Source: a virus (lineage: Duplodnaviria; Caudoviricetes). From it: a stretch of 32,624 nucleotides of DNA. The translations under genes and the position numbers were made by a program. Position 1 is the first letter of the stretch; every line of letters starts with the position of its first letter. The stretch spans positions 1 through 32,624 of IMG/VR virus record IMGVR_UViG_3300033692_000021, one strand, 5' to 3'. Of this stretch, positions 1,219-31,533 are shown in pieces. The notes below the pieces were generated by a model. It was given only the letters and a program-made list of their open reading frames with translations, ran no database searches and was not told where the DNA came from.

Positions 1219-3261
1219 ATGCTGGAATATCACGATAACATATTATGTGTTGCGGGCGGCTGGCTTTATGGCGAAGGCGCCATCATGACCAAAGCCAATT
1301 ATGATGCCCTGGTTTCGCGCGACCGATTGCAAGTTGTGCGTAAGGGAGGTGGGCCTGGTCGTCCGGCATTGATAAAATACGAAAGCATTCCCGATAGATT
1401 CAAGGCGTTGATTGTAGCTAAGGAAGGAGATCCTTACAAAAAAGCACGTTTTAATGACTTTGAAAAATACATTATACCAGATCGTCATGCACGCGCTTAC
1501 TTTAGTGCATTCAAGTTGCCTGATGGCCGCAATCTTCCTGGGGAGGTGATTAACGAATATTCAACTAATGCTGATCTCCTTAATGCTGTTCACAGAGTGA
1601 TCACTAAAAGAACCGGTAAGAGAAAAGCCCTGGGTGGACGAACTTCTCATATATGGGAATCAGTTGCCGGGACAGTGGAGCAGCTTAAGTGTGATGAAGA
1701 CTTAAAGAAGAAATATAATCATACACTTCCATCTAATCCCAGGCGTTTGAAAGAACGGCACAAGAAGTACATGGAGGAAGGATATCACGCTCTTATACAC
1801 AGAGGTTATTGTAACAGCAACAGCAGGAAGGTGACTGCTGACATGGAGCGTCTTATCCTTTCCCTCTATGCTATGCCTAACAAGCCATTCTCTTCGAGCG
1901 TGCATGACTTGTATCTGCAATTCCTGAGCGGTGCTATAGATGTGGTTGATTACGACACCGGAGAGATTTACGACCGCAACGACTTCTTTGATAAAGATGG
2001 TGTGCCGGTAATGGTGAGTGAAAGTACTATCTGGAATTACATCAACAATCCTAAGAATCGTGTGATTGTAGATAAGGCCAGGAGTGACAGTCACGAATTC
2101 ACAAGTATTCGCAGACCACACCACCACCGTCACGCGCCCATGTTCTCGCTTAGTAAAATCTCGATGGACGACCGAGACCTTCCGCGCAAGTTGCCTGATG
2201 GCACACGTGTAAAAGCCTATTACGCTTATGATGTGAAGAGTGGTTGTGTGGTTGGTGCCTCATATAGCAGGCATAAAGACGAGGGACTATTTATTGATTG
2301 TGTTCGCGACATGTTCAAGTTCTTCGACTATCACAATATGAGCACGCCTGCCGAGGTGGAGGTGGAGCATCACCTGGTTAACAAGTTCAAAGACGACCTG
2401 ATGCAAGCCGGAATCATATTCCCATTTGTGCGCTGGTGTAATCCAGGGAACTCGCAGGAGAAGTATGCAGAGACAGGTAACCGCCTTAAGAAGTATGGTT
2501 ACGAGAAACGATATCAGGATGGTATTGGTCGCTTCTACTCAAAGCTTGAAGCCAACAGGCCGCGTCAGGAAAAAACGTGGGATGATGAAGGTATGAAAGT
2601 GAAGGAGAAGGCTTACACATTTGAGCAGCTTGTTGCTGATGACAGATTTACAATAGAGAAGTACAATAATAGCAAGCACCCTGATGAGAAGTATTATCCA
2701 AATATGACCAGAATGGATGTTCTTAAGAGATATCAGAATCCGGATCTGTTGGATATCGACCGCGCGCTTCTTGTTCGATACATCGGAGACCACACCGAAA
2801 CAAGTGTTCGTCGCTCGCAATATGTAACGGTGCAGTATGGTAAGTACCAGTTGCCTTCTCCAGAGGTGTTGCAAAAGCTTAAGCCAAATAACTACAAGGT
2901 GGATGCTTACTATCTGCCTGGCGAGGATGGAATTGAAGAAGTCTATCTCTATCAGGACCGGACATTTATTTGCAAAGCAGAGCTGATTAAGACCTACAAT
3001 ACTGCCACGGCTGAGCAAACAGACGATGATCGCAGCGCATACACCGAACAGGCCAAGTATGTAAGTCAGTTCGATAAGCTTGCCAAAGATGGCAAGGCGT
3101 CACTTTCAAAAATTCACATCATAGAGAAGGAAGAGCAGGAGGATGAAGTGATTGTGGAAACGGTGCCGGACATAGTGGAACCGGACGAGATTGAGACAGA
3201 CTTTGAAGACTACTCTGACGATGAAGATTTCAATATACAGAGAGCATTGGACTCTCTATAA
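1219..3261 (+). CDS. Mu-like DDE transposase (MuA analog)
   Basis: 680 aa; RNase H-like core (ISMDDRD...YYAYDVKSGCVVG...GNSQEKYAE); acidic C-terminal tail; followed by an AAA ATPase. Confidence 0.88.
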   Translation: MLEYHDNILCVAGGWLYGEGAIMTKANYDALVSRDRLQVVRKGGGPGRPALIKYESIPDRFKALIVAKEGDPYKKARFNDFEKYIIPDRHARAYFSAFKLPDGRNLPGEVINEYSTNADLLNAVHRVITKRTGKRKALGGRTSHIWESVAGTVEQLKCDEDLKKKYNHTLPSNPRRLKERHKKYMEEGYHALIHRGYCNSNSRKVTADMERLILSLYAMPNKPFSSSVHDLYLQFLSGAIDVVDYDTGEIYDRNDFFDKDGVPVMVSESTIWNYINNPKNRVIVDKARSDSHEFTSIRRPHHHRHAPMFSLSKISMDDRDLPRKLPDGTRVKAYYAYDVKSGCVVGASYSRHKDEGLFIDCVRDMFKFFDYHNMSTPAEVEVEHHLVNKFKDDLMQAGIIFPFVRWCNPGNSQEKYAETGNRLKKYGYEKRYQDGIGRFYSKLEANRPRQEKTWDDEGMKVKEKAYTFEQLVADDRFTIEKYNNSKHPDEKYYPNMTRMDVLKRYQNPDLLDIDRALLVRYIGDHTETSVRRSQYVTVQYGKYQLPSPEVLQKLKPNNYKVDAYYLPGEDGIEEVYLYQDRTFICKAELIKTYNTATAEQTDDDRSAYTEQAKYVSQFDKLAKDGKASLSKIHIIEKEEQEDEVIVETVPDIVEPDEIETDFEDYSDDEDFNIQRALDSL

Positions 3262-3280
3262 TTTCTAAAACGATTGAACT

Positions 3281-4162
3281 ATGATGACAACAGATTTAAA
3301 AAACAGAATTGTGGCAGCTATCAAAGAGCGCCGGAACAATTACTCAAGTGATGCTAAGATGGCCGTGGCCCTTGGAATCAGCTCTTCGCAATTTTCGCGC
3401 ATTACCCGCAAGGGAGACATGGACAATGTACTGGCTGATGCGAAGTGGATATCCATTGCCCGCCGGCTTCAGGTTGAGATTAGCGGACGCAAAGAATTGG
3501 TTACGGCTAAAACACCCGTCTTTCAATTTGTGACCGGGCAGCTGGCAGCTTGTAAGAATAACTCTTTGTCGGGGTTGCTTTGTGACAGTGCCGACGTTGG
3601 TAAAACTTACGCTGCTAAGTGGTTTTGCCGCAACAATAAGAATGCTGCATACATCGACTGCTCACAGGTAAAGACAAAACAGAAGCTTATCAGGGCCATT
3701 GCCCGCGAGTTTGGCCTGGTATCTATTGGCAGATACAGCGATGTATATGATGACCTGGTCTTTTATCTACGTTCCGTGCCTGCTCCTATTGTGGTGCTTG
3801 ATGAGGCCGGTGATTTGGATTACCCTGCTTTTTTGGAGCTGAAAGCTCTCTGGAATGCCACTGAGTATGCCTGTGGCTGGTACATGATTGGTGCCGATGG
3901 GTTGCGCAAAAAAATAGACAAGAATCTTGGTAACAAGAAAGTAGGATATACCGAGATATTCAGCCGTTACGGAAGCCGCTACCAGAAGATTACTCCTGAT
4001 GGAGGAGACGAGCTGAATAAATTCAACCGTCAGCAGGTGGCAATGATTGCAAAAGCGAACAACGTCCCCAACCCTCAGCAATTGTACAGCAAAACCCAAG
4101 GCAGTTTGCGACGCATATACACTGAGATTCAGAAGTTAAACCAGCAAGCACAGGAGGCATAA
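3281..4162 (+). CDS. MuB-like transposition AAA+ ATPase
   Basis: N-terminal HTH, Walker A variant SADVGKT, Walker B VVLDEAG; adjacent to transposase. Confidence 0.85.
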   Translation: MMTTDLKNRIVAAIKERRNNYSSDAKMAVALGISSSQFSRITRKGDMDNVLADAKWISIARRLQVEISGRKELVTAKTPVFQFVTGQLAACKNNSLSGLLCDSADVGKTYAAKWFCRNNKNAAYIDCSQVKTKQKLIRAIAREFGLVSIGRYSDVYDDLVFYLRSVPAPIVVLDEAGDLDYPAFLELKALWNATEYACGWYMIGADGLRKKIDKNLGNKKVGYTEIFSRYGSRYQKITPDGGDELNKFNRQQVAMIAKANNVPNPQQLYSKTQGSLRRIYTEIQKLNQQAQEA

Positions 4163-10038: not shown

Positions 10039-10148
10039 TCTATATTGTTATGTATCTGGTGGTGAGTAGCAGGGGAGTTGTAAACCCCATTGCATAGACA
10101 ATGACAAACATTGGTGAAAACAGTGCAATATGCTTCCTCACCCCTTTT

Positions 10149-10249
10149 ACATAACGGTTTGGCGGTATGGTTAGTAAAGCCGTACCACACCGCTGAATTG
10201 AAGAACTAAACAACCTTACGGCTTTATTAATTATGACCGCTTGTTAGCA
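10149..10249. repeat. attC-like site 1
   Basis: ACATAAC ... arms 10162-10184 / 10217-10240 pair with G:T wobbles and one extrahelical G ... GTTAGCA. Confidence 0.7.
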
Positions 10250-10282
10250 TTAATTTTTGAGCGGTGGAAATACACTTAAAAA

Positions 10283-10627
10283 ATGAACGAATATTTAAAA
10301 TCACAAATTGAAGAGCATTGCCAAATGGTGCAACGCGGGGCAAAGCCATTAAGCCTACTTCCGCACCAAGAAAGATATTACTATGAGATTGTAGGCATAA
10401 TTAATAAACACAAACTACACTATTCATCAGAGCTTAATGGTGAGGGTTGGCGTACAATCTACATTTATAAAAATAAAGCACTTAGATATTTAATCGCAGA
10501 AATGCCAATGAAACCAGAAACCCCGAGCGAACACGCTTTAGTTGGCTACTTGCTTGGATATAGTACGGATTCAATTTGTGATTATATATTACAACATTGC
10601 CAATTAGAAGAGCCAAACTTGATGTAG
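10283..10627 (+). CDS. Cassette-borne hypothetical protein (weak resemblance to DUF2023)
   Basis: 114 aa; fills the payload between 14-bp IRs; AT-rich; VGYLLGY...IC motif. Confidence 0.7.
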   Translation: MNEYLKSQIEEHCQMVQRGAKPLSLLPHQERYYYEIVGIINKHKLHYSSELNGEGWRTIYIYKNKALRYLIAEMPMKPETPSEHALVGYLLGYSTDSICDYILQHCQLEEPNLM

Positions 10628-10648
10628 CTGTGTGCGTTGGCAAATTAA

Positions 10649-10778
10649 TGCTAACGGTAAATTGTAAGTGCAGACAGGGATTTGGGAACACTTTCCTGTC
10701 AAATGGCACAAACAATAATTAAAGAACAAATATTTGCATACAGAACATGCCCCTGTTTGCATTTACAAAATGTTATAG
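10649..10778. repeat. attC-like site 2
   Basis: TGCTAAC ... TTGTAAGTGCAGACAGGG (10662-10679) / CCCTGTTTGCATTTACAA (10751-10768), 18 bp with 2 G:T ... GTTATAG. Confidence 0.7.
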
Positions 10779-10800
10779 GGCGTTTTTAACTGATTTTATT

Positions 10801-11016
10801 ATGAAATACGAATTTAAAAGTAGACCGAGCGGGAAGTCATTTTCGCAAATGATTCAACTAAAAATGAATATTGAAAAAGGATTAAAATGTGCAGTAGCAA
10901 CACTTAACCCAGAAAAAACAAAAAGAGACTTTGAATATATGACAGGCGCAAAACTTAATTTAGAACCGTGCGATGGCGGGAAAGATGTTTACAACGCTTC
11001 TTTAAATGCCCTATAA
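10801..11016 (+). CDS. Cassette-borne hypothetical protein
   Basis: Likely start MKYEFKSRPSGKS at 10801; TAA stop lies inside the CTATAAC box, as is common for integron cassette genes. Confidence 0.65.
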   Translation: MKYEFKSRPSGKSFSQMIQLKMNIEKGLKCAVATLNPEKTKRDFEYMTGAKLNLEPCDGGKDVYNASLNAL

Positions 11017-11286
11017 CGTAAAAGCGGTATGTTGTCGGTTGCCGACAGGTACAGGACGGACGGTAATTAACGGAATACAATTCAATAACTTAAAATAGTG
11101 AGCGGATTATGAAAAATATTGATGAAGTATACAAAGATTGGTGCGGAGAGCATCATACAACAAACAGTGGATATCCAGTACATGATAGCGCGGAAGCACA
11201 AGATTTTGCAGAGTACTATCACAAAGAAATGTTAGCGAACGAAGGTCAAAAACCAGACAGCAACTGCAATATACAGCATGTTAGCG
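11011..11286. repeat. attC-like site 3 with long coding loop
   Basis: CTATAAC ... GCGGTATGTTGTCGGTTGC (11024-11042) / GCAACTGCAATATACAGC (11260-11277) ... GTTAGCG. Confidence 0.6.
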
Positions 11287-11417
11287 GTAGTGCGGTAATG
11301 CCTGAAGGATTTAAAGTATATAAATGTACTGATTGTGGGGCGGTAAATGTTAAAAAAGATAATGGGAATGTAAGGGTCGGTTTTTGTGATGAATGCGAAC
11401 ACCCATTATGGAACTGA
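11109..11417 (+). CDS. Chimeric hypothetical protein with C-terminal Zn ribbon
   Basis: 102 aa; reads through the hairpin arm and GTT core (CNIQHVSGS); CTDC...CDEC lies in the last payload. Confidence 0.7.
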   Translation: MKNIDEVYKDWCGEHHTTNSGYPVHDSAEAQDFAEYYHKEMLANEGQKPDSNCNIQHVSGSAVMPEGFKVYKCTDCGAVNVKKDNGNVRVGFCDECEHPLWN

Positions 11418-11466
11418 TTAGCATTACCGCTAACGCCATTATAACCCCACTTCAAAAAACTGAACC

Positions 11467-14638: not shown

Positions 14639-15061
14639 CTATTCCCTAATCTTACACGTAAAGCTCACAAACGTAACCATCCAGCCTTTCCACCGGTGGT
14701 AATGCTGCCACTCCACATGCTTTAACCGTGTGGCAACCTGTGCACCCCACACAGGTACAAGTCCGTTTAAATTGTCTTTAATCTGCGTTGCAATTTCTTC
14801 GTTTTGTTGAATGGCGATATCGGGTACAGCAGTATCGTGCCGGCTTATTACCTTGCTTGTTACATGCACACGTATCAATACTTCGCCTTCGCTCAGGGTC
14901 TTGCTTATCTTATCCATCTCCAGAGGGTCGGGAAACTCCACAAATGCCACCGGGTGCGTGTGTATGGTGCCTTCGTACTGAGCATTGTACCACTGAACAT
15001 CTTCCAGTTCCGGTATCTTTTTCAGCTCTGCCTCTATTGCTTTATAAATCGGGAAATACAT
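14639..15061 (-). CDS. Putative head-tail joining / tail terminator protein (Mu gp37-like)
   Basis: 140 aa, QWYNAQY...PVAFVEF; follows the virion morphogenesis gene. Confidence 0.55.
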   Translation of the reverse strand: MYFPIYKAIEAELKKIPELEDVQWYNAQYEGTIHTHPVAFVEFPDPLEMDKISKTLSEGEVLIRVHVTSKVISRHDTAVPDIAIQQNEEIATQIKDNLNGLVPVWGAQVATRLKHVEWQHYHRWKGWMVTFVSFTCKIRE

Positions 15062-15064
15062 AGC

Positions 15065-15520
15065 TTATTTGTTTAAGATTTTGTCCATCAGTTTGTCCAC
15101 CTTCTTACCTATCATATCATCCAGCTTGCCGCTCTCGCCAATCATCTGCCGCTCGGGCATGGTAAAGCCACTGCCTCGCCCTGCCTTGCCGCCTTCGTTG
15201 TGTACTTCGGAATATGGGCGGGTGTTTTCAAAAATCACTTTGCCTGGCTTGGCCTTACTGTCCTGATCCCACGCCCGCCGCAAGTGGCCCCGGTCAACCA
15301 GTATGCTGCGGCCCTGCCTGCGCTTCTCTTTTTTGCTCTTTGGCGGCTTGCGGCTCTTCCACTTTTTCACACCCGAGCCTGTCTGGAAACCCTGCTGTGC
15401 AAAGTTGTCGCTGATGAATTGAAGTCCCTCACGCTTCACAACTCTCGGGAGATCTCTTTCAATCAGCTTTTCCATATCGCTTTGCACCTGTCGCAGCTTT
15501 GGTTGCAGTTTCTTTGCCAT
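15065..15520 (-). CDS. Phage virion morphogenesis protein (Mu gpG-like)
   Basis: ILVDRGHLRR...YSEVHNEGG...MPERQMIGES. Confidence 0.85.
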   Translation of the reverse strand: MAKKLQPKLRQVQSDMEKLIERDLPRVVKREGLQFISDNFAQQGFQTGSGVKKWKSRKPPKSKKEKRRQGRSILVDRGHLRRAWDQDSKAKPGKVIFENTRPYSEVHNEGGKAGRGSGFTMPERQMIGESGKLDDMIGKKVDKLMDKILNK

Positions 15521-15521
15521 A

Positions 15522-16448
15522 TCATATCAGTTTTATTGAGTCAAATACCAGCGTTCCCTGCACACTTTCAAAGGCTTTAATCACAAAGTTGATGCCTGCA
15601 TCGGTGCCTGTCCAGGTGTGAATATTGCCACTCACGGAGTGTACACCTGCTTTTATCAGCTGTTGCACGTTCTCGCTGTTGTGAAGCAATGCCAGGGCTT
15701 TGGTTCCTTTCTCGGCTGCGTTAATCTTTGCAGTTCTTTCGATGCCCGATTTTTCGAAGCTTACCTTCAGCTTACCACTTCGCACGAAGCGGTTACGGAG
15801 TTCGGTATGTGCCTGGCGAATCATCACATCTTTAATCAGCTCATCGGCCATGCCTTTTACCTGGTTGGCTTCGGTTACCGGCACATCGTAATAACCTGCA
15901 CTGTCGCTGAAGAGCTTACCTGTTTTGCCGGGGTTGTGGTCAAATCCGCTGCCCGGTTCCACGTCGGTGGTGCCTTTGGCAGGCTTATCGGTTTGCACCA
16001 CATCACATCGGCAACCCCAGTCAAGTGGCGGGTAGTGCCCATCCCAAAACGGATCATCAATGGGGCGAATGGTGCCGTTGAGTTTTGCATGACTGCTCCT
16101 GGTCTGGCTGTCCATTACGGCCACATACTCAAGATTGGGGTATAAGTCCTGGTCGGCTTTAAACCCGTTCCACTTCTTTGCCATCTCTGCCGAGCTCAGT
16201 GCCTGGTTGTGTTCTGTTGTCAGCCAGTTCTTGTTGTACTTCTCGGCTATTGGACCGGCAGCCTGCTTGAACTTACTGAACGATCGTACCTCGCCGTTTT
16301 CGTCAACCAGCAATGATACCAGTTCTTTCTGCTCCTGGTGGTTCTTGAATGCGGCAAATACCCCGGCGTTGTGAGTAAGCTGTTCGTTCAATGCCCAATC
16401 GCGGCTGTTGTAGGTAGTACTTACCAGACTGCCCATTTTTTCCGACAC
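15522..16448 (-). CDS. Mu gpF-like minor head protein; frame extends upstream past 16595
   Basis: YPNLEYVAVMDSQTRSSHAKLNG...DDPFW..HYPPLDWGCRC. Confidence 0.9.
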   Translation of the reverse strand: MSEKMGSLVSTTYNSRDWALNEQLTHNAGVFAAFKNHQEQKELVSLLVDENGEVRSFSKFKQAAGPIAEKYNKNWLTTEHNQALSSAEMAKKWNGFKADQDLYPNLEYVAVMDSQTRSSHAKLNGTIRPIDDPFWDGHYPPLDWGCRCDVVQTDKPAKGTTDVEPGSGFDHNPGKTGKLFSDSAGYYDVPVTEANQVKGMADELIKDVMIRQAHTELRNRFVRSGKLKVSFEKSGIERTAKINAAEKGTKALALLHNSENVQQLIKAGVHSVSGNIHTWTGTDAGINFVIKAFESVQGTLVFDSIKLI

Positions 16449-16544
16449 CGCTCCGGCCAGTTCCCGGTAGTTGCGTTCCCATATCTCCCGGTCAATTCCT
16501 TCCTGTCCCTGGTGTATGCGTTTCAGATACCCGCTGAATTCATC

Positions 16545-16595
16545 GCCGTTCTCACTTACCAGGGTAAGTCCTGTGAGACGGCTCTGCGCTTTTTT
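16545..16595 (-). promoter_or_regulatory. Programmed -1 ribosomal frameshift signal (portal to gpF)
   Basis: A_AAA_AAG in the portal frame (16595-16589), 6-nt spacer, GCCGT...ACGGC stem-loop; the -1 frame is the gpF frame. Confidence 0.75.
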
Positions 16596-17731
16596 ACAGG
16601 GCCGCGCGCCTGTGGTTGACCGGGCTGTGCCGGTGGCTCCGGTTCCTTCGGGTCGGGTGCCGGCTTGCGCTCCAGGTCGGTGAATTTAATCTTACACCCA
16701 TCGAGCGAATAACCGTGATATACCAGGAAAGGAATCAGCTTGTTGTTGACCACGTTGGTGCAACGTCTCAGCCTTGCCGCATGGAAGTCGTTGAGAATGC
16801 GCTCATGCACTTCGGCACTTCCTACAAAAGACTTCTCATCACTTGAGCCTGTCTGCCCGTTGATGCACTTCGATATCTGCTCATCGCAATACTGGGAGTT
16901 CTCCAGATAGATTTTGTAAAAATCGGTGTTCTGAGCCTGCTTAATCTCAATCTCATCGTCATGGTCGGTAATTACATAACCATTGGCGGCGAAGTTGGCG
17001 GCCATGCTTTCAATGCGATCAAGCTCTGCTTTATCGGTAGTGTCTGTCTTGATGCTCAGGTATGGCATTCCGTACTTTTCAGATGCCTGCGACCAATCGC
17101 TCCTTGCAAAGTTTTTCCAGATAACCTCACGGGCTATCAGTTCAAGACTGCCCAGCTTTTCGGCACTGCCCAGCTCTATGAAAAAGAAGTCTTCGGGCTT
17201 GAGGGTTCCCTCCTCATTGCTGTAAGGGATGTTGTTGCCGGGCGCATCGCTGTCGAAGCAGATAGCCTTTTTAAACGGCAATACGTTGCGGCGTGGGAAT
17301 GTAATCATATCAACGAACTCTCCCTCATCGTTAATGTCGCCAGCCTCCACAAGGGTATAACCCCACATCTCGCTGTCCAGGACAATGCTCAAAAACTTTT
17401 CGAACCACTCACGGCGCAGCAGTTCTGTTGCCTGCTCGTCTTCGCTGCCGTTGCGGGTAAGCACAAAAGGGCTGCTTGTTACTTTATTCCTGGCAATCTC
17501 CAGCTGAGCATGAACATGACTATCGCGCACAGAATTCTCATAGATGCCAATCAGGTCTATGCGGTCAGGGTTATCGGCATCCAGTGCATTCTCAATTGCC
17601 TGGCGGAGTGTTTTCATCTCCATTTTAATCCGGTCGGGGCTCTTCTTCTGTGCCTTCCGGCTGTGGCGTGTACCCTTTTCTGGGGTATTGTCCTGGGCTT
17701 TGAAGCCCTTCAATAAGTTGCTTAATTTCAT
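16556..17731 (-). CDS. Portal protein (DUF935 / Mu gp29-like)
   Basis: DSHVHAQLE...W...EKYGMP...CDEQISK.INGQT...SAEVHE. Confidence 0.9.
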   Translation of the reverse strand: MKLSNLLKGFKAQDNTPEKGTRHSRKAQKKSPDRIKMEMKTLRQAIENALDADNPDRIDLIGIYENSVRDSHVHAQLEIARNKVTSSPFVLTRNGSEDEQATELLRREWFEKFLSIVLDSEMWGYTLVEAGDINDEGEFVDMITFPRRNVLPFKKAICFDSDAPGNNIPYSNEEGTLKPEDFFFIELGSAEKLGSLELIAREVIWKNFARSDWSQASEKYGMPYLSIKTDTTDKAELDRIESMAANFAANGYVITDHDDEIEIKQAQNTDFYKIYLENSQYCDEQISKCINGQTGSSDEKSFVGSAEVHERILNDFHAARLRRCTNVVNNKLIPFLVYHGYSLDGCKIKFTDLERKPAPDPKEPEPPAQPGQPQARGPVKKRRAVSQDLPW

Positions 17732-18156
17732 GAGAAGTAAGGATTATGTGTTCGTGGATTGTTACTGCCCATTCGTATAGATGTGGCTGTCTCGCCATCG
17801 GCAGTAGTGTTTCTTTGCAGGCTGCATCCGTAACGTCCGCCAGCTATCTTATCAAGTTCCTTCAGGGTGTCGTCGTAATCTTTTATTACCCGTTCGGGAA
17901 TCTCTTCGTCGGGCACCCGTGCATATATGTAATAGAGTGAAAGGCTAATCATCCAGCGCATGAGACTCCTGTCTCTTTCGTCTCCTGTAAAGGCCAGTTC
18001 GGCCTGCACGTTGTACTTATCGCTCAGGCGGTCGGTAATGAGTGCGCCTGCATCTTTTTCGGCATCGTTCAACAGCTCATCATCGCCACCTGTAATCTGG
18101 TCAATGATGGATGTGGAAACCCGCGTTGCGTAATCTTCCTTCAGAATAAAGTCCAT
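17728..18156 (-). CDS. DUF1320 / Mu gp36-like head-tail adaptor
   Basis: Start MDFILKEDY (18156); IPERVIKDYDDTLKELDKIAGG; lies between terminase and portal. Confidence 0.8.
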   Translation of the reverse strand: MDFILKEDYATRVSTSIIDQITGGDDELLNDAEKDAGALITDRLSDKYNVQAELAFTGDERDRSLMRWMISLSLYYIYARVPDEEIPERVIKDYDDTLKELDKIAGGRYGCSLQRNTTADGETATSIRMGSNNPRTHNPYFS

Positions 18157-18157
18157 A

Positions 18158-19726
18158 TCAATCCCTCCTTGAATTATTGCGTTTGTAACCACCGCTGCGG
18201 GCACCCGATGCAGGGCCTTTGCGGCTGTGCTTTTTGTTGAGCATAAAGTGAGCACCTTCCACACTGTCGGGGCCATCGTCGTGGTCGGCATCGGGGAATG
18301 CCAGGAACTGCTCACGCAGTATCTGCATGTCGGGTTCCTGCTTCAGTTCCATGTTGAAGCGCAAAACGTGCTGTTCGGTAAGTGGTGAAAGGTTTTCGAT
18401 GCGTCCCTCTTTGTCGGGCTTCTTGCGGCGGTCGCCACGTATGGGCAGATAATTCCCTCCACGCTTGTCGCCTTCTTTATAATACTCTTCAATAAGTGTG
18501 TCCTGGATAAAGTTGGCTTCCATGTAATGGCGGCAATTGACATTCTGCGGAAGCTTATCGGCTATGTTGTAATGTCCTCGAACCATCTCGCCCGTGGTAC
18601 ACTGACGACAAAACACATCAATAACATCGAAGTACCTGCCAATGCGACCGACCAGAACAATAGACTTGTAGTCGTTCTTTTTGGTACCCTTGAAAGAAGG
18701 GTCGTTGTAAGTTACCAGCTTATCGTAAGTCGAGAGGTCGGGCAGCTGTGCCCATATCAGATCGTCTTCCTGGAATATGCGGCCAATAACCATGTGCTGA
18801 TGAAAGAACTCCCGAAGACCAAGCCGCCACCCCATGCGGGTCATCTTCTTAAGAATCATCTCACTGGTGTAGCGTTCTTTCCATGCGGGGCGGCCCGATG
18901 TGCTCAGGTCTTTTTGGTGGCGGTTGTTCTCAAGTGCATATACTTTAATATGAACGATGCCCTGACGTTTGGGATCTTCCGGTTCTACATCGCCTACCAG
19001 TTTAGCCAGGATGCTGGCCCGGTGAATACGGTTCCCTGCAATAATCAACCGGCTGCCTGTGTTGGGCATGGCTCCGTAGAAATCTCCCAGTACCCAGTCC
19101 ACAATTTCATTTACCCTGGCTTCGTTCTTAACTATCTGAGCATCGTCAATATCATCAACCACTCCGTAATTGGGTCGCTTGTCGCTTTTGCGGGTACCAC
19201 GGGGCGACTGTCCACGGCCAAAGGCCCAAAATCCCACACCATCTACAGTAGTAAAGTGACCATCCTGCCAGTTTCCCAGGCTAAACTGCTCGCCAAAGTC
19301 GGCAATAAAACGTTTGTTCAGCATCAACTCTGCCTGAACATCGCCCAGCAACCCTTTTGCTTTCTCGTTGTTGGCACTGGCAATCATCATTCCTGTAAGC
19401 TCGTTGCGTGCTTTCAGGAACATGGGGATCATGATATCAGCAAAGACAGACTTTGCATGTTCGCGGGGCCACTCAAGTACGGCAAAAAGGTCGGGGTTGT
19501 CCTGGATTTCCTTACCGGCTTTTTTGTGAAACCATGCAAAATCAGAATCCATCAGGTGGCTGAAGTAGTAATGCGCGAATTTTGAAAACGAAGAGGTAAG
19601 CTCTTTAATGCGCTTTTGCTTCTGGCGCAGTGTTTCGTGAACAGATGGTGCCGCACGTTGTATGCTCAACTTCTCATCGAGCCACTGCTGATACTCTCTT
19701 TTTGCTTTTACCGAGAGATCGCTCAT
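18158..19726 (-). CDS. Terminase large subunit (Mu gp28-like)
   Basis: WPREHAKS Walker A variant, VVDDIDD, YNDPS, HDDGPDS nuclease motif. Confidence 0.92.
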   Translation of the reverse strand: MSDLSVKAKREYQQWLDEKLSIQRAAPSVHETLRQKQKRIKELTSSFSKFAHYYFSHLMDSDFAWFHKKAGKEIQDNPDLFAVLEWPREHAKSVFADIMIPMFLKARNELTGMMIASANNEKAKGLLGDVQAELMLNKRFIADFGEQFSLGNWQDGHFTTVDGVGFWAFGRGQSPRGTRKSDKRPNYGVVDDIDDAQIVKNEARVNEIVDWVLGDFYGAMPNTGSRLIIAGNRIHRASILAKLVGDVEPEDPKRQGIVHIKVYALENNRHQKDLSTSGRPAWKERYTSEMILKKMTRMGWRLGLREFFHQHMVIGRIFQEDDLIWAQLPDLSTYDKLVTYNDPSFKGTKKNDYKSIVLVGRIGRYFDVIDVFCRQCTTGEMVRGHYNIADKLPQNVNCRHYMEANFIQDTLIEEYYKEGDKRGGNYLPIRGDRRKKPDKEGRIENLSPLTEQHVLRFNMELKQEPDMQILREQFLAFPDADHDDGPDSVEGAHFMLNKKHSRKGPASGARSGGYKRNNSRRD

Positions 19727-20166
19727 ATCATCTTGCGTTTTTCGTTCAGGTAGGCTTCAATGAATTCCACCAGTTCCTGAGCCAATTCAAGATTCTCAGC
19801 TTTCAGCCATTGCGAAAACTCCCTCAGCACTTTAATCATGGCACTCCATTCCAGTTCCTTTGCCTTCACTGTAGTGAATAGCTTTTGCAGAGCATCAATA
19901 TCTCCTTTGCTTATGAGCTTTGTGGCACCCTCTTTCTGGTACTCATCCTTAATGTTCTTGAGAGCAGTCAGCTGGTAGTTTATCAATTCCCACACTCCCT
20001 CTTCGGCAGTCTGCTTTTCAATAAGCGTTCGGCTCTTCTGCATCTCCCAGTTATCGTCCTGCTTCCATTTACAGATTGTCTTTTCAGACCTGCGCAGGGT
20101 TCGGGCAATTTCTTTTTGTGCCCAGCCGTCGGTGTACAGAATGCGTGCGGCATCTCTTTCCTTCAT
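19723..20166 (-). CDS. Terminase small subunit (N-terminal HTH)
   Basis: QKEIARTLRRSEKTICKWKQDDNW; coupled to terL. Confidence 0.8.
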   Translation of the reverse strand: MKERDAARILYTDGWAQKEIARTLRRSEKTICKWKQDDNWEMQKSRTLIEKQTAEEGVWELINYQLTALKNIKDEYQKEGATKLISKGDIDALQKLFTTVKAKELEWSAMIKVLREFSQWLKAENLELAQELVEFIEAYLNEKRKMI

Positions 20167-29793: not shown

Positions 29794-31533
29794 ATGGCTA
29801 AGACGTATGCGGATCCGGCGGTGTATAATGAGAGGGTTAATGTAAATGATTTAGATAGGTTGCTGTTGGCCAATAGTGACAATAATGCGACAGAATATGC
29901 AACAATAGGTAGTATATTGTCAAAGGCAGCAACTGCTAATGATATTGTGAAAATGCAAGCAGATTCGCATCATCTAACAGACCAATATAATTACAGCGCT
30001 GACGTTATTGAAGGTGCGTCAATATTATCCACAGGGGTCTTGGAATCGTATGCTGGTAGAGGATCGTTGTTTTTTCGTCTAAGCAAGGATGGGACAGCAG
30101 ATAAGATATACGGCTGCACTATTTTGACTTATCAATGGTATTCATCTGTTCTTGATCTCGATAGTGGAAGTGATAGTCTTGGAAGAACTACGTCAAATAA
30201 TCCTCCGGAGGGCGCGAAGTATTGTGGTTTGACAATTGATACAACCCTAGATTATTCTAATATTCTGATTCAGAAGACTGGGGAGTATAAATCGCGAGCT
30301 GATAATCATTTTTTATTAAATGAATATAATTACAGCGCTGACGTTGTTGAAGGTGCGTCAATACCCATAACAGGGGTCTTAGAATCGTATGCTGACCGAG
30401 GAGTTTTATTTTTTCGTTTGAGCAAGGATGGGACAGCAGATGAGATATCTGGCTGCACTATCTTAGCTTATCAATGGTATTCATCTGTCCTTGACCTTGG
30501 TAGTGGAAGTGATAGTCTTGGAAGAACTACCTCAAATAATCCTCCGGAGGGCGCGAAGTATTGTGGTTTGACAATTGATACAACTCTAGATTATTCTAAT
30601 ATTCTGATTCAGAAGACTGGGGAGATAGCGGATAATCTTTCAGTGTTAGGATCGACGTTGAACAACAGTGTTGGCGAGAATTGTTTTGCGAACAATCTCA
30701 GGACTGATTTGAAAATTCTTGGATTCGGCAACTCTTTCATGCGGAACTCTGTACATTACCTTAGTAAAATCGCCAGTTCTGGAATAACTGTTAATCTTAA
30801 AATTGGGAACCTGTACACCGGGGGTACGCAATTACATCAACATCTTGCAGCTCTTAATGATAAAACAACTCCTTATGTGTGGAACAAGTATGAAAATGGA
30901 GTTAATACTGAAACCCTCAACAATCAGACAGGAGAATACGGATTACTAAATGAAAGATGGGATGCAATCATACTACATCAGTACACGCCCTGGGATTATC
31001 CGTTCATGCCAACCTTGGGCTTGTTGATTGAAAAGATAATATCCATACTTGGGTATTGTCCTAAATTCTATTTAAACGCAACATGGGCTGGAAGTCTCGA
31101 CAATAACGTGACATATTATGGTTATGCTACGGAAATAGAAATGTGGGAAGCTGTAATGGACTACAATAAAGAAGCTTCTAGGAATAGTGGCGTTGTGAAT
31201 ATTATCCCAACTGGTACGGCGGTTCAGAATGCCCGAACATTATCTTTCGCAAATGACTATAATAGATTTGTGAATGCTCAGGGTGATTGGCATCACTTAA
31301 ATCCGGCAGGAGGGTTTATTGCTGCTTGTACAATATACGAGAAGATCGTTCGTCCATTGAATGGAGTTAGCTGTGACCAGACTTCTTTCCGTATACTTGC
31401 AGAAACAAGCTTAGCACCTTCAAGTATTATTGATTCTGGAATCTTAGTTACAGACACAAATTATCAAGTGTTGTGTAATTCAGCTATTGAGGCTGTGAAG
31501 AATCCAGCAGTCGTTACAACTATTACAGGGTAA
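29794..31533 (+). CDS. Putative receptor-binding/tail protein with duplicated domain and C-terminal SGNH (DUF4886-like) hydrolase
   Basis: KILGFGNSF...NLYTGG...WDAIILHQ...IIPTGTAVQNAR...DWHHLN; last phage gene. Confidence 0.75.
   Translation: MAKTYADPAVYNERVNVNDLDRLLLANSDNNATEYATIGSILSKAATANDIVKMQADSHHLTDQYNYSADVIEGASILSTGVLESYAGRGSLFFRLSKDGTADKIYGCTILTYQWYSSVLDLDSGSDSLGRTTSNNPPEGAKYCGLTIDTTLDYSNILIQKTGEYKSRADNHFLLNEYNYSADVVEGASIPITGVLESYADRGVLFFRLSKDGTADEISGCTILAYQWYSSVLDLGSGSDSLGRTTSNNPPEGAKYCGLTIDTTLDYSNILIQKTGEIADNLSVLGSTLNNSVGENCFANNLRTDLKILGFGNSFMRNSVHYLSKIASSGITVNLKIGNLYTGGTQLHQHLAALNDKTTPYVWNKYENGVNTETLNNQTGEYGLLNERWDAIILHQYTPWDYPFMPTLGLLIEKIISILGYCPKFYLNATWAGSLDNNVTYYGYATEIEMWEAVMDYNKEASRNSGVVNIIPTGTAVQNARTLSFANDYNRFVNAQGDWHHLNPAGGFIAACTIYEKIVRPLNGVSCDQTSFRILAETSLAPSSIIDSGILVTDTNYQVLCNSAIEAVKNPAVVTTITG
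29984..30624 (+). repeat. Two ~302-bp direct repeats (period 339 bp = 113 codons)
   Basis: 29984-30285 and 30323-30624 are highly similar. Confidence 0.95.

Follow-up and report, generated by a model that had tools for sequence, protein, structure and literature searches.

Integrons are known for capturing genes, and their recombination site, which is short and for the most part without coding function, has a fixed place behind a gene; in the usual cassette the gene lies upstream of its own attC and on the strand that is not recombined. The domain that distinguishes the integron integrase IntI reads extrahelical bases. In-frame exchange of C-terminal protein parts behind an N-terminal part by site-specific recombination is known from shufflons and from hsdS of type I restriction systems, where a small fixed set is rearranged by inversion or local translocation.

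In the portions of the attC literature cited here, the recombined strand of a classical attC is the one richer in G:T pairs (1.24 versus 0.39) and is recombined at its own AAC, and deleting extrahelical bases shifts the preference towards the other strand (PMC5027507). The IntI-specific domain is given as about 35 residues near patch III (PMC4889954). Clusters of attC-like sites, called CALINs, have been described in phages, including Polaribacter phage P12002L, and IntI1 was able to recombine five of the six phage sites that were tested (main text of PMC9892861).

The window, by which we mean the whole stretch of DNA analysed here, is one entire linear virus record of 32,624 nt, estimated by CheckV to be 51% complete. 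A Mu-type transposase and a transposition ATPase (1219..4162, + strand; PHROGs matches phrog_310, E 2.5e-54, and phrog_296, E 2.8e-36), together with terminase, portal and major head protein genes on the same contig (PHROGs), make it a Mu-like transposable phage. Terminase, portal and several morphogenesis genes are on the minus strand (14639-20166), the subsequent head and tail genes run in the opposite direction, and a 579-aa ORF (29794-31533), probably a tail protein with a duplicated domain, holds a direct repeat at 29950-30588 (339-nt spacing, 85% identical). Judged by sequence relationships, the host is probably a member of the Bacteroidota, because one homologue of the protein head described below comes from a Bacteroidales genome and a payload match was found in Cellulophaga phage phi13:2. 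This isolated phage (NC_021803.1) gave the only payload match among 50,697 named phage records.

In the early region, within a low-GC patch, three hairpins bounded by AAC and GTT (H1, H2 and H3) alternate with payloads that have complementary ends. The array was compared with contigs from four runs of one study (X1-X4, of which X1 may be the source) and from four runs of other studies, among them X6 and X8. Its features are as follows.

10047..10155, + strand: probable relic payload; non-coding, GTT..AAC with 8-bp terminal complementarity, no hairpin detected upstream, constant up to 10156 in runs X2-X4
10153..10652, + strand: cassette 1, consisting of H1 (10153-10245) and payload 1 with ORF 10283-10627; skipped as a 496-500-nt unit in X2
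10653..11014, + strand: cassette 2, consisting of H2 (10653-10774) and payload 2; starts at 10652/10653 after foreign DNA in X3 and X8
11015..11017, + strand: AAC at the 5' foot of H3, the routine crossover; joint 11019->11437 in X2 and X3, foreign upstream DNA joined at 11014 in X6 and X8
11024..11042, + strand: left arm of H3; arm duplex of -12.2 kcal/mol on the coding strand and -7.9 on the other strand
11043..11259, + strand: loop of H3, 217 nt, with an A-rich leader, the start codon at 11109 and the first 50 codons, i.e. the head domain
11260..11279, + strand: right arm of H3 (to 11277) and a 2-nt spacer, translated into a linker; the arm reads SNCNIQH
11280..11282, + strand: GTT core, Val58; head/tail boundary that differs between phages and secondary exchange point
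11280..11434, + strand: payload 3, 155 bp, with a terminal inverted repeat of 13/14; encodes a 45-aa tail with CTDC..CDEC (zinc-ribbon-like)
11109..11417, + strand: head-plus-tail ORF of 102 aa (P0001), with GTT as codon 58 in frame
11432..11447, + strand: array end, an AAC with no hairpin behind it, in the AAC-N5-TATA spacing also seen before the recombinase genes of relatives

The ORF of payload 1 matches DUF2023 only weakly, below the cut-off, and payload 2 probably encodes ORF 10801-11016. A substantial read-through head is found in H3 alone; H1 lacks one, and the one in H2 does not exceed 8 codons and lies in another frame. A first-pass annotation made from the sequence had reported a loop of about 215 nt in H3 with a start codon and some 50 codons, and an ORF reading through the 3' arm and GTT into a 155-bp payload that encodes a zinc ribbon. 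Both statements agree with the coordinates given here.

With a geometry-fixed detector, no hairpin in the window scored higher than H1, H2 and H3 (43, 36.5 and 30; the next one 26). When the 3.5-kb region was shuffled 100 times by dinucleotides, a score of 30 was never reached (maximum 28.5). A first detector with a stricter 5-base seed had missed H3 and was replaced. Among 4750 GTT..AAC pairs lying 60-600 nt apart in the window, just three reach 13 of 14 complementary terminal bases, and these three are the payloads. When 11005-11295 was folded without constraints, neither strand gave the stem of H3 (z 0.64 and 1.43). This stem is weak, and the case for it is made by its geometry and by relatives whose arms pair better.

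Such relatives are numerous: we collected 169 unique hairpins in 51 loci, leaving out of the counts weak cases (L013-L015, L038, L039, L061, L062), duplicates (L028, L030, L035) and near-duplicates (L026, L027). They show the arrangement of attC, i.e. AAC..GTT cores, inner paired arms and unpaired spacers, the latter being 5-6 and 1-3 nt long in 158 of the 169, and all have T-GTT-[AG] in common. Hairpin sizes cluster sharply near 83, 109-123, 190 and 270 nt (loci L001-L103). Like a CALIN, the window array is a cluster of attC-like sites, three in 1.3 kb, with no recombinase nearby. Elsewhere, some hairpins are separated by very small payloads of 26-35 nt whose ends are complementary (L108:5345-5369, L108:8831-8855 and the array of G004). 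Furthermore, the unrelated heads of the window (11232-11259) and of the loops of the H3 type in L043, L058 and L064 share an A-N-x linker ending before the arm; its DNA resembles a payload-end core within the loop and may be a relic of an earlier insertion.

When G.T and A.C were scored alike in 103 stems, the coding strand carried 188 G.T against 21 A.C, and for all three window stems this strand gives the greater stability. The coding strand thus matches the recombined strand of classical attC sites, and crossover at AAC is therefore predicted. Crossover is indeed seen at the AAC of the better-folding, G:T-rich strand, with the cut base placed less finely than a single nucleotide. In a scoring that permitted one bulge only, the best stem needed no bulge in 126 of the 169 hairpins, and the extrahelical bases of the window are one on the 3' arm of H1 and one on the 5' arm of H3.

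The contigs of runs X1-X4 show which unit is gained and lost. The joint 11019->11437 (X2, depth 200; X3, depth 92) skips 417 nt, that is H3 together with payload 3 from AAC to AAC, and the joints 10151->10652 and 10156->10653 in X2 remove H1 with payload 1. Seven loose ends in X3 and X4, at 10156, 10157, 10653, 11430 and 11432, all lie at AAC, with foreign hairpins after or foreign payloads before them. The only other one (X1, 11316, 19 letters) is inside a payload and at no core. At the GTT cores 10243, 10772 and 11280 neither a joint nor a loose end was found in the contigs of these four runs of one study. Since joints occur at AAC and none at GTT, head and tail form one cassette in which the hairpin stands before the gene, and we regard this polarity, hairpin plus downstream payload, as very probable. 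It is not the order of integron cassettes, in which the gene precedes its own attC. The array end takes three different last payloads, joined at 11430, 11432 and 11437 (X2-X4), from which we infer an attI-like insertion site at 11432..11447. Cassette 1 is also present in X2 (10151-10640) as a minority form, at depth 28 versus 258 in the flank, on a 494-nt contig, perhaps a rare variant or else a circle that was excised.

Contigs from other studies add to this picture. In X6 head and tail are intact behind a foreign payload, with 3 differences over 11014-11415 (99% identical), and X8 contains H2 and payload 2, beginning at 10652. Low-depth contigs also show the right arm of H3 followed by a different payload in X6 and, in one contig of X8, the arms of H3 kept around 163 other letters between 11104 and 11254 in the loop. 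Joints within payloads in these studies (likeness 82, one side under 30) were not used, as they stem from terminal repeats common to other cassettes. Among 112 payloads, the close pairs from different phages (86-98% identical) retain the upstream hairpin (0.85-0.96) in five of five cases and have lost the downstream flank (0.32-0.58) in the same five; one pair at 76% identity has a changed hairpin. The same-phage pair L012/L089 was excluded from this count.

A second level of exchange becomes visible between phages. Searches with the head (residues 1-46) and the tail (residues 62-102), covering proteins of 56-179 aa, found 13 other proteins for the head and 14 for the tail. None of the 13 carries the tail half and none of the 14 the head half, so the two parts have unrelated partners, as the first-pass annotation had supposed, and homologues do not always hold both together. 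By eye, the tail homologues have V-S at the junction in 9 of 14 cases, a variant in 2 and nothing comparable in 3; for the head homologues a clear arm-like linker with V was seen in 3 of 13, a degenerate one in 2 and none in 8. At seven viral loci the head DNA lies once in the same hairpin (L002), once within a payload (L007) and five times in hairpin-free genes. For the tail, the inspection covered 4 of the 7 viral loci and 19 of the 24 from metagenomes. Seven had no such GTT core, and 14 with it were analysed alongside the window (n=15). Thirteen of the 15 have GTT in frame, behind nine different hairpin/head families, whereas L031 and L032 have a related tail in another frame. A search of genome contigs with the tail gave two weak loci, both unrelated.

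In this tail family the arms are unrelated until 2 bases before GTT, and payload identity reaches 97%, both inverted-repeat ends being intact; L012 and L024, for instance, have payloads 97% identical and unrelated hairpins. Over 18 related, non-independent pairs the identity is 0.17-0.33 at positions -4 to -6, 0.39 at -2 and 1.0 from -1 to +2, and therefore the break lies at GTT or at most 2 bases from it. One and the same tail occurs behind heads of about 17-65 aa with unrelated sequences. Conversely, the window and L002 share H3 at 84% between payloads that differ on both sides, and in the arm a one-base deletion and a one-base insertion cancel, so that GTT stays in frame. The left-arm pattern matched 21 times, mostly by chance; true H3-type hairpins were found at seven loci with six distinct sequences, L054 being unresolved. 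Their arms carry unrelated heads, even though the distance from left arm to GTT is kept at 251-266 nt. In the H3-type hairpin of L053 the frame of the head does not continue into the tail, which is otherwise open and rich in cysteine, owing to a frameshift or a sequencing error. At the level of sequence comparison it is shown that heads and tails assort independently across phages, with the break at GTT. As there is no GTT joint in the phage's own populations, the GTT event can be dated solely by comparison between phages. Exchange at GTT is rarer than at AAC, yet recent in the payload-3 family. Routine exchange proceeds at AAC, a rarer one at GTT, and replacement of heads within the loop is a third route.

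The reading frame across GTT is biased. We omitted 33 of the 169 hairpins, which had been chosen by our own patterns, and among the remaining 136 bystanders 56 read-throughs (head of at least 10 aa, tail of at least 25) fall into the three frames as 40 (GTT as Val), 13 and 3, or by arm family as 35, 12 and 2. For hairpins of at least 150 nt the split is 12, 0 and 2 of 20. A stop blocks one frame in 81 of the 169 cores. A fixed frame is thus rejected by the 13 and 3 read-throughs in other frames, and some random GTT exchanges would therefore be out of frame. The first-pass idea that exchanging payloads at GTT swaps C-terminal domains in frame and combinatorially holds for the reassortment between phages, the break at GTT and the predominant Val frame. 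It has to be restricted insofar as this is a rarer event of second level, the frame is not fixed and some heads are replaced within the loop.

P0001 itself has no match in Pfam or PHROGs. Atlas searches with each half gave matches all under 0.9, those of the tail giving only zinc-ribbon-like leads, and a single Rfam match was judged to be chance. A single-sequence structure model consists of two unpacked parts of low confidence (pLDDT 48.6), which is uninformative by itself. The head has 17 invariant columns over 14 sequences and occurs also at the starts of genes without hairpins; the tail has an internal ATG at codon 64. P0001 would most likely be an accessory protein, small and early, whose tail binds zinc. 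Long hairpins (L001, L059, L067, L069, L072, L079, L081, L100 and the window) are often followed by short tails rich in cysteine. Cysteine-rich short tails follow 11 of 21 long heads and 16 of 61 hairpins of 100-150 nt. The median head measures 48 aa and the median tail 36 aa in the long class, and the median head 19 aa in the 100-150-nt class. No Met occurs in the first 15 codons of 50 of 70 in-frame tails; the other 20 have one.

No PF00589 match was found in the window, so that an integrase gene next to the array is missing in this contig; being 51% complete, it leaves room for one elsewhere in the phage. Three of the five records behind related loci have a tyrosine recombinase, and G001 (complete) and G005 (66% complete) gave no PF00589 match. 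In G003 and G004, arrays of 16 and 27 hairpins stop just before a co-oriented gene for a 267-aa protein, the last payload ending in an AAC without hairpin about 55 nt before the gene start. Six loci found with this protein were compared, one of them G003. In five of them, 4-10 hairpins lie at most 4 kb upstream and none downstream (L113 having little downstream DNA), and these five arrays end at AAC followed by a TATA-rich site; the 28% relative has no hairpins. Altogether six related phage records have an array that ends before such a Xer/IntI-like enzyme. It has SAM_4 and Phage_integrase domains, and two of the enzymes score 147 and 158 bits against TIGR02249, below the integron-integrase cut-off of 265. 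Between aligned stretches they have 14 residues, compared with 64 in 2A3V (IntI4), that is about 50 fewer, and they lack the IntI-specific domain. Read on the minus strand, the loci show integrase, end site, payload and hairpin, which is the classical order with the genes reversed. The array of phi13:2 is followed by a 428-aa tyrosine recombinase (NC_021803.1 gp038, L104:8266-9552) unlike the 267-aa type, and this enzyme did not match integron-integrase models.

Taking these observations together, our main reading, to which we assign a probability of about 0.62, is an integron-like cassette built back to front, which is gained and lost at AAC and more rarely re-paired at GTT, likely by a Xer/IntI-like recombinase. 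The coding strand, as the counterpart of the 'bottom' strand of integrons, would fold, and a compact enzyme of this kind, reaching the window phage in trans, would cut the folded single strand at AAC. Because the stems are nearly symmetric and mostly free of bulges, the other strand would occasionally be cut at the GTT-side core. Such a cut would swap hairpin and head against payload and tail in frame, and the fused protein would be made and useful. The more specific version, a reversed integron in which one minimal enzyme cuts near-symmetric hairpins on both strands, so that cassettes move by one cut and heads and tails swap by the other, is tentative and has slightly less than even odds.

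Two other readings of the locus fare badly. That H3 is a chance hairpin and the fusion an assembly chimera would fit its failure to appear in free folding, but the top three scores, the three unique inverted repeats, the recurrence of the same cassette in the independent study of X6, the 169 hairpins in 51 loci and the payload in an isolated phage refute it, so that we give it practically no weight. If the polarity were classical, with GTT as crossover and the head belonging to the upstream cassette and becoming fused to the next one, then the assortment of halves and the between-phage junction at GTT would follow directly. However, all natural joints at cassette borders are at AAC, the skips of 417 and about 500 nt fit a hairpin with its downstream payload and not GTT-to-GTT units of 529 or 508 nt, the hairpin travels with the downstream payload in all five close pairs, and the payload upstream of H3 differs in L002, X6 and X8. 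This reading is very improbable, and routine GTT-to-GTT recombination is refuted by the AAC joints and loose ends of X2-X4. By the same evidence the first-pass annotation erred in taking GTT for the routine site and in placing the C-terminus in a next cassette, since H3 and payload 3 come and go as one unit.

Two further readings concern the re-pairing at GTT, its route and its use. The same hairpin-first cassettes could be re-paired by homology-driven or illegitimate recombination at 5-7 shared bases (TGTTAG) or in leader and arm. The T-GTT-[AG] of all hairpins offers the microhomology, the four sibling runs lack a GTT joint, and the replacement of heads within retained arms needs no cut at GTT. 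Yet arms that are unrelated to within 2 bases of GTT next to payloads of up to 97% identity leave little homology and point to one repeated breakpoint, and we consider this route unlikely. A larger share of doubt, though still short of an even chance, goes to the possibility that the fusion mainly supplies a leader and start codon to a start-less payload and that the shuffling is neutral, which is compatible with either recombination route. It would be expected from one tail standing behind unrelated heads of very different length, from the median head of only 19 aa in the 100-150-nt class and from a structure model whose two parts do not pack, a model that says little by itself. On the other hand, long heads are conserved domains that also occur in hairpin-free genes, and the compensated frameshift between the window and L002 maintains the frame from head to tail. 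We keep the back-to-front cassette with a rarer exchange at GTT as the preferred reading.

On this reading the recombination site comes ahead of its gene, carries the code for a conserved domain and is among the parts exchanged, and the array would therefore create new proteins beyond new gene orders. It would also account for the V-S-x-S linkers of small hypothetical phage proteins. The side of the crossover is fixed by natural contigs, free of any experiment. If cutting on both strands is true, the array would be a natural, open-ended domain-shuffling library under selection and would show new cassettes arising from pieces of ordinary genes. The 267-aa candidate enzyme bears on the origin of single-strand hairpin recombination from Xer-like enzymes and on the genesis of cassettes, and programs that detect attC sites after training on the classical polarity may interpret arrays of this kind wrongly.

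No description of cassettes that begin with the hairpin and encode domains in its loop, or of reassortment of heads and tails, was found in the literature searched, mostly open-access main texts. Phage CALINs share with the window a cluster of attC-like sites in a phage lacking an integrase, but in section 3.4 of PMC9892861 there is no account of heads encoded in loops, of a reversed polarity or of heads and tails being re-paired, and the main text of that paper does not mention 'in-frame', 'start codon' or 'Bacteroid'; sites of the same type may be listed in its supplementary tables. Translation that begins in or before a site and enters, or is coupled to, a cassette gene is known from ORF-11 of attI1, short attC ORFs and gcuF1-blaOXA-28 (cited portions of PMC8876359). 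Those are, however, short leaders or single fusions, often with the attC lost, whereas here an intact hairpin carries a conserved domain of 50 codons in many head/tail pairings. The Treponema integrons with inverted integrase (PMC4889954, as far as cited) likewise have integrase and cassettes outside the usual divergent layout, but there a true IntI is turned relative to attC, while here the relation of recombinase and site reads as classical and the genes are turned. Unlike shufflons and hsdS, the locus draws on an open pool of cassettes that are gained and lost; no inversion joint is listed among the contigs, the joints being skips and replacements, and no recombinase that could act as an adjacent invertase was found in the contig.

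The closest relatives are the attC cassettes of integrons, in the portions of PMC5027507 and PMC4889954 cited. In both, an imperfect hairpin lies between AAC and GTT, the ends of the cassette are complementary and the crossover falls at AAC on the better-folding, G:T-rich strand, and relatives of the window also have a Xer-like tyrosine recombinase that starts beside an end site without hairpin. In contrast to integrons, the hairpin here comes before the gene and is formed by the coding strand, the genes point at the recombinase, loops of up to about 220 nt encode protein heads, the terminal complementarity amounts to 13-14 bp, most stems are bulge-free, the enzyme is without the IntI-specific insertion, and hairpins and payloads reassort at GTT as well. 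Summarizing, the array works like integron cassettes and falls outside the integrons by its polarity and its integrase; what it adds are natural contigs that place the crossover at AAC, along with cases in which the same payload was swapped recently on the GTT side.
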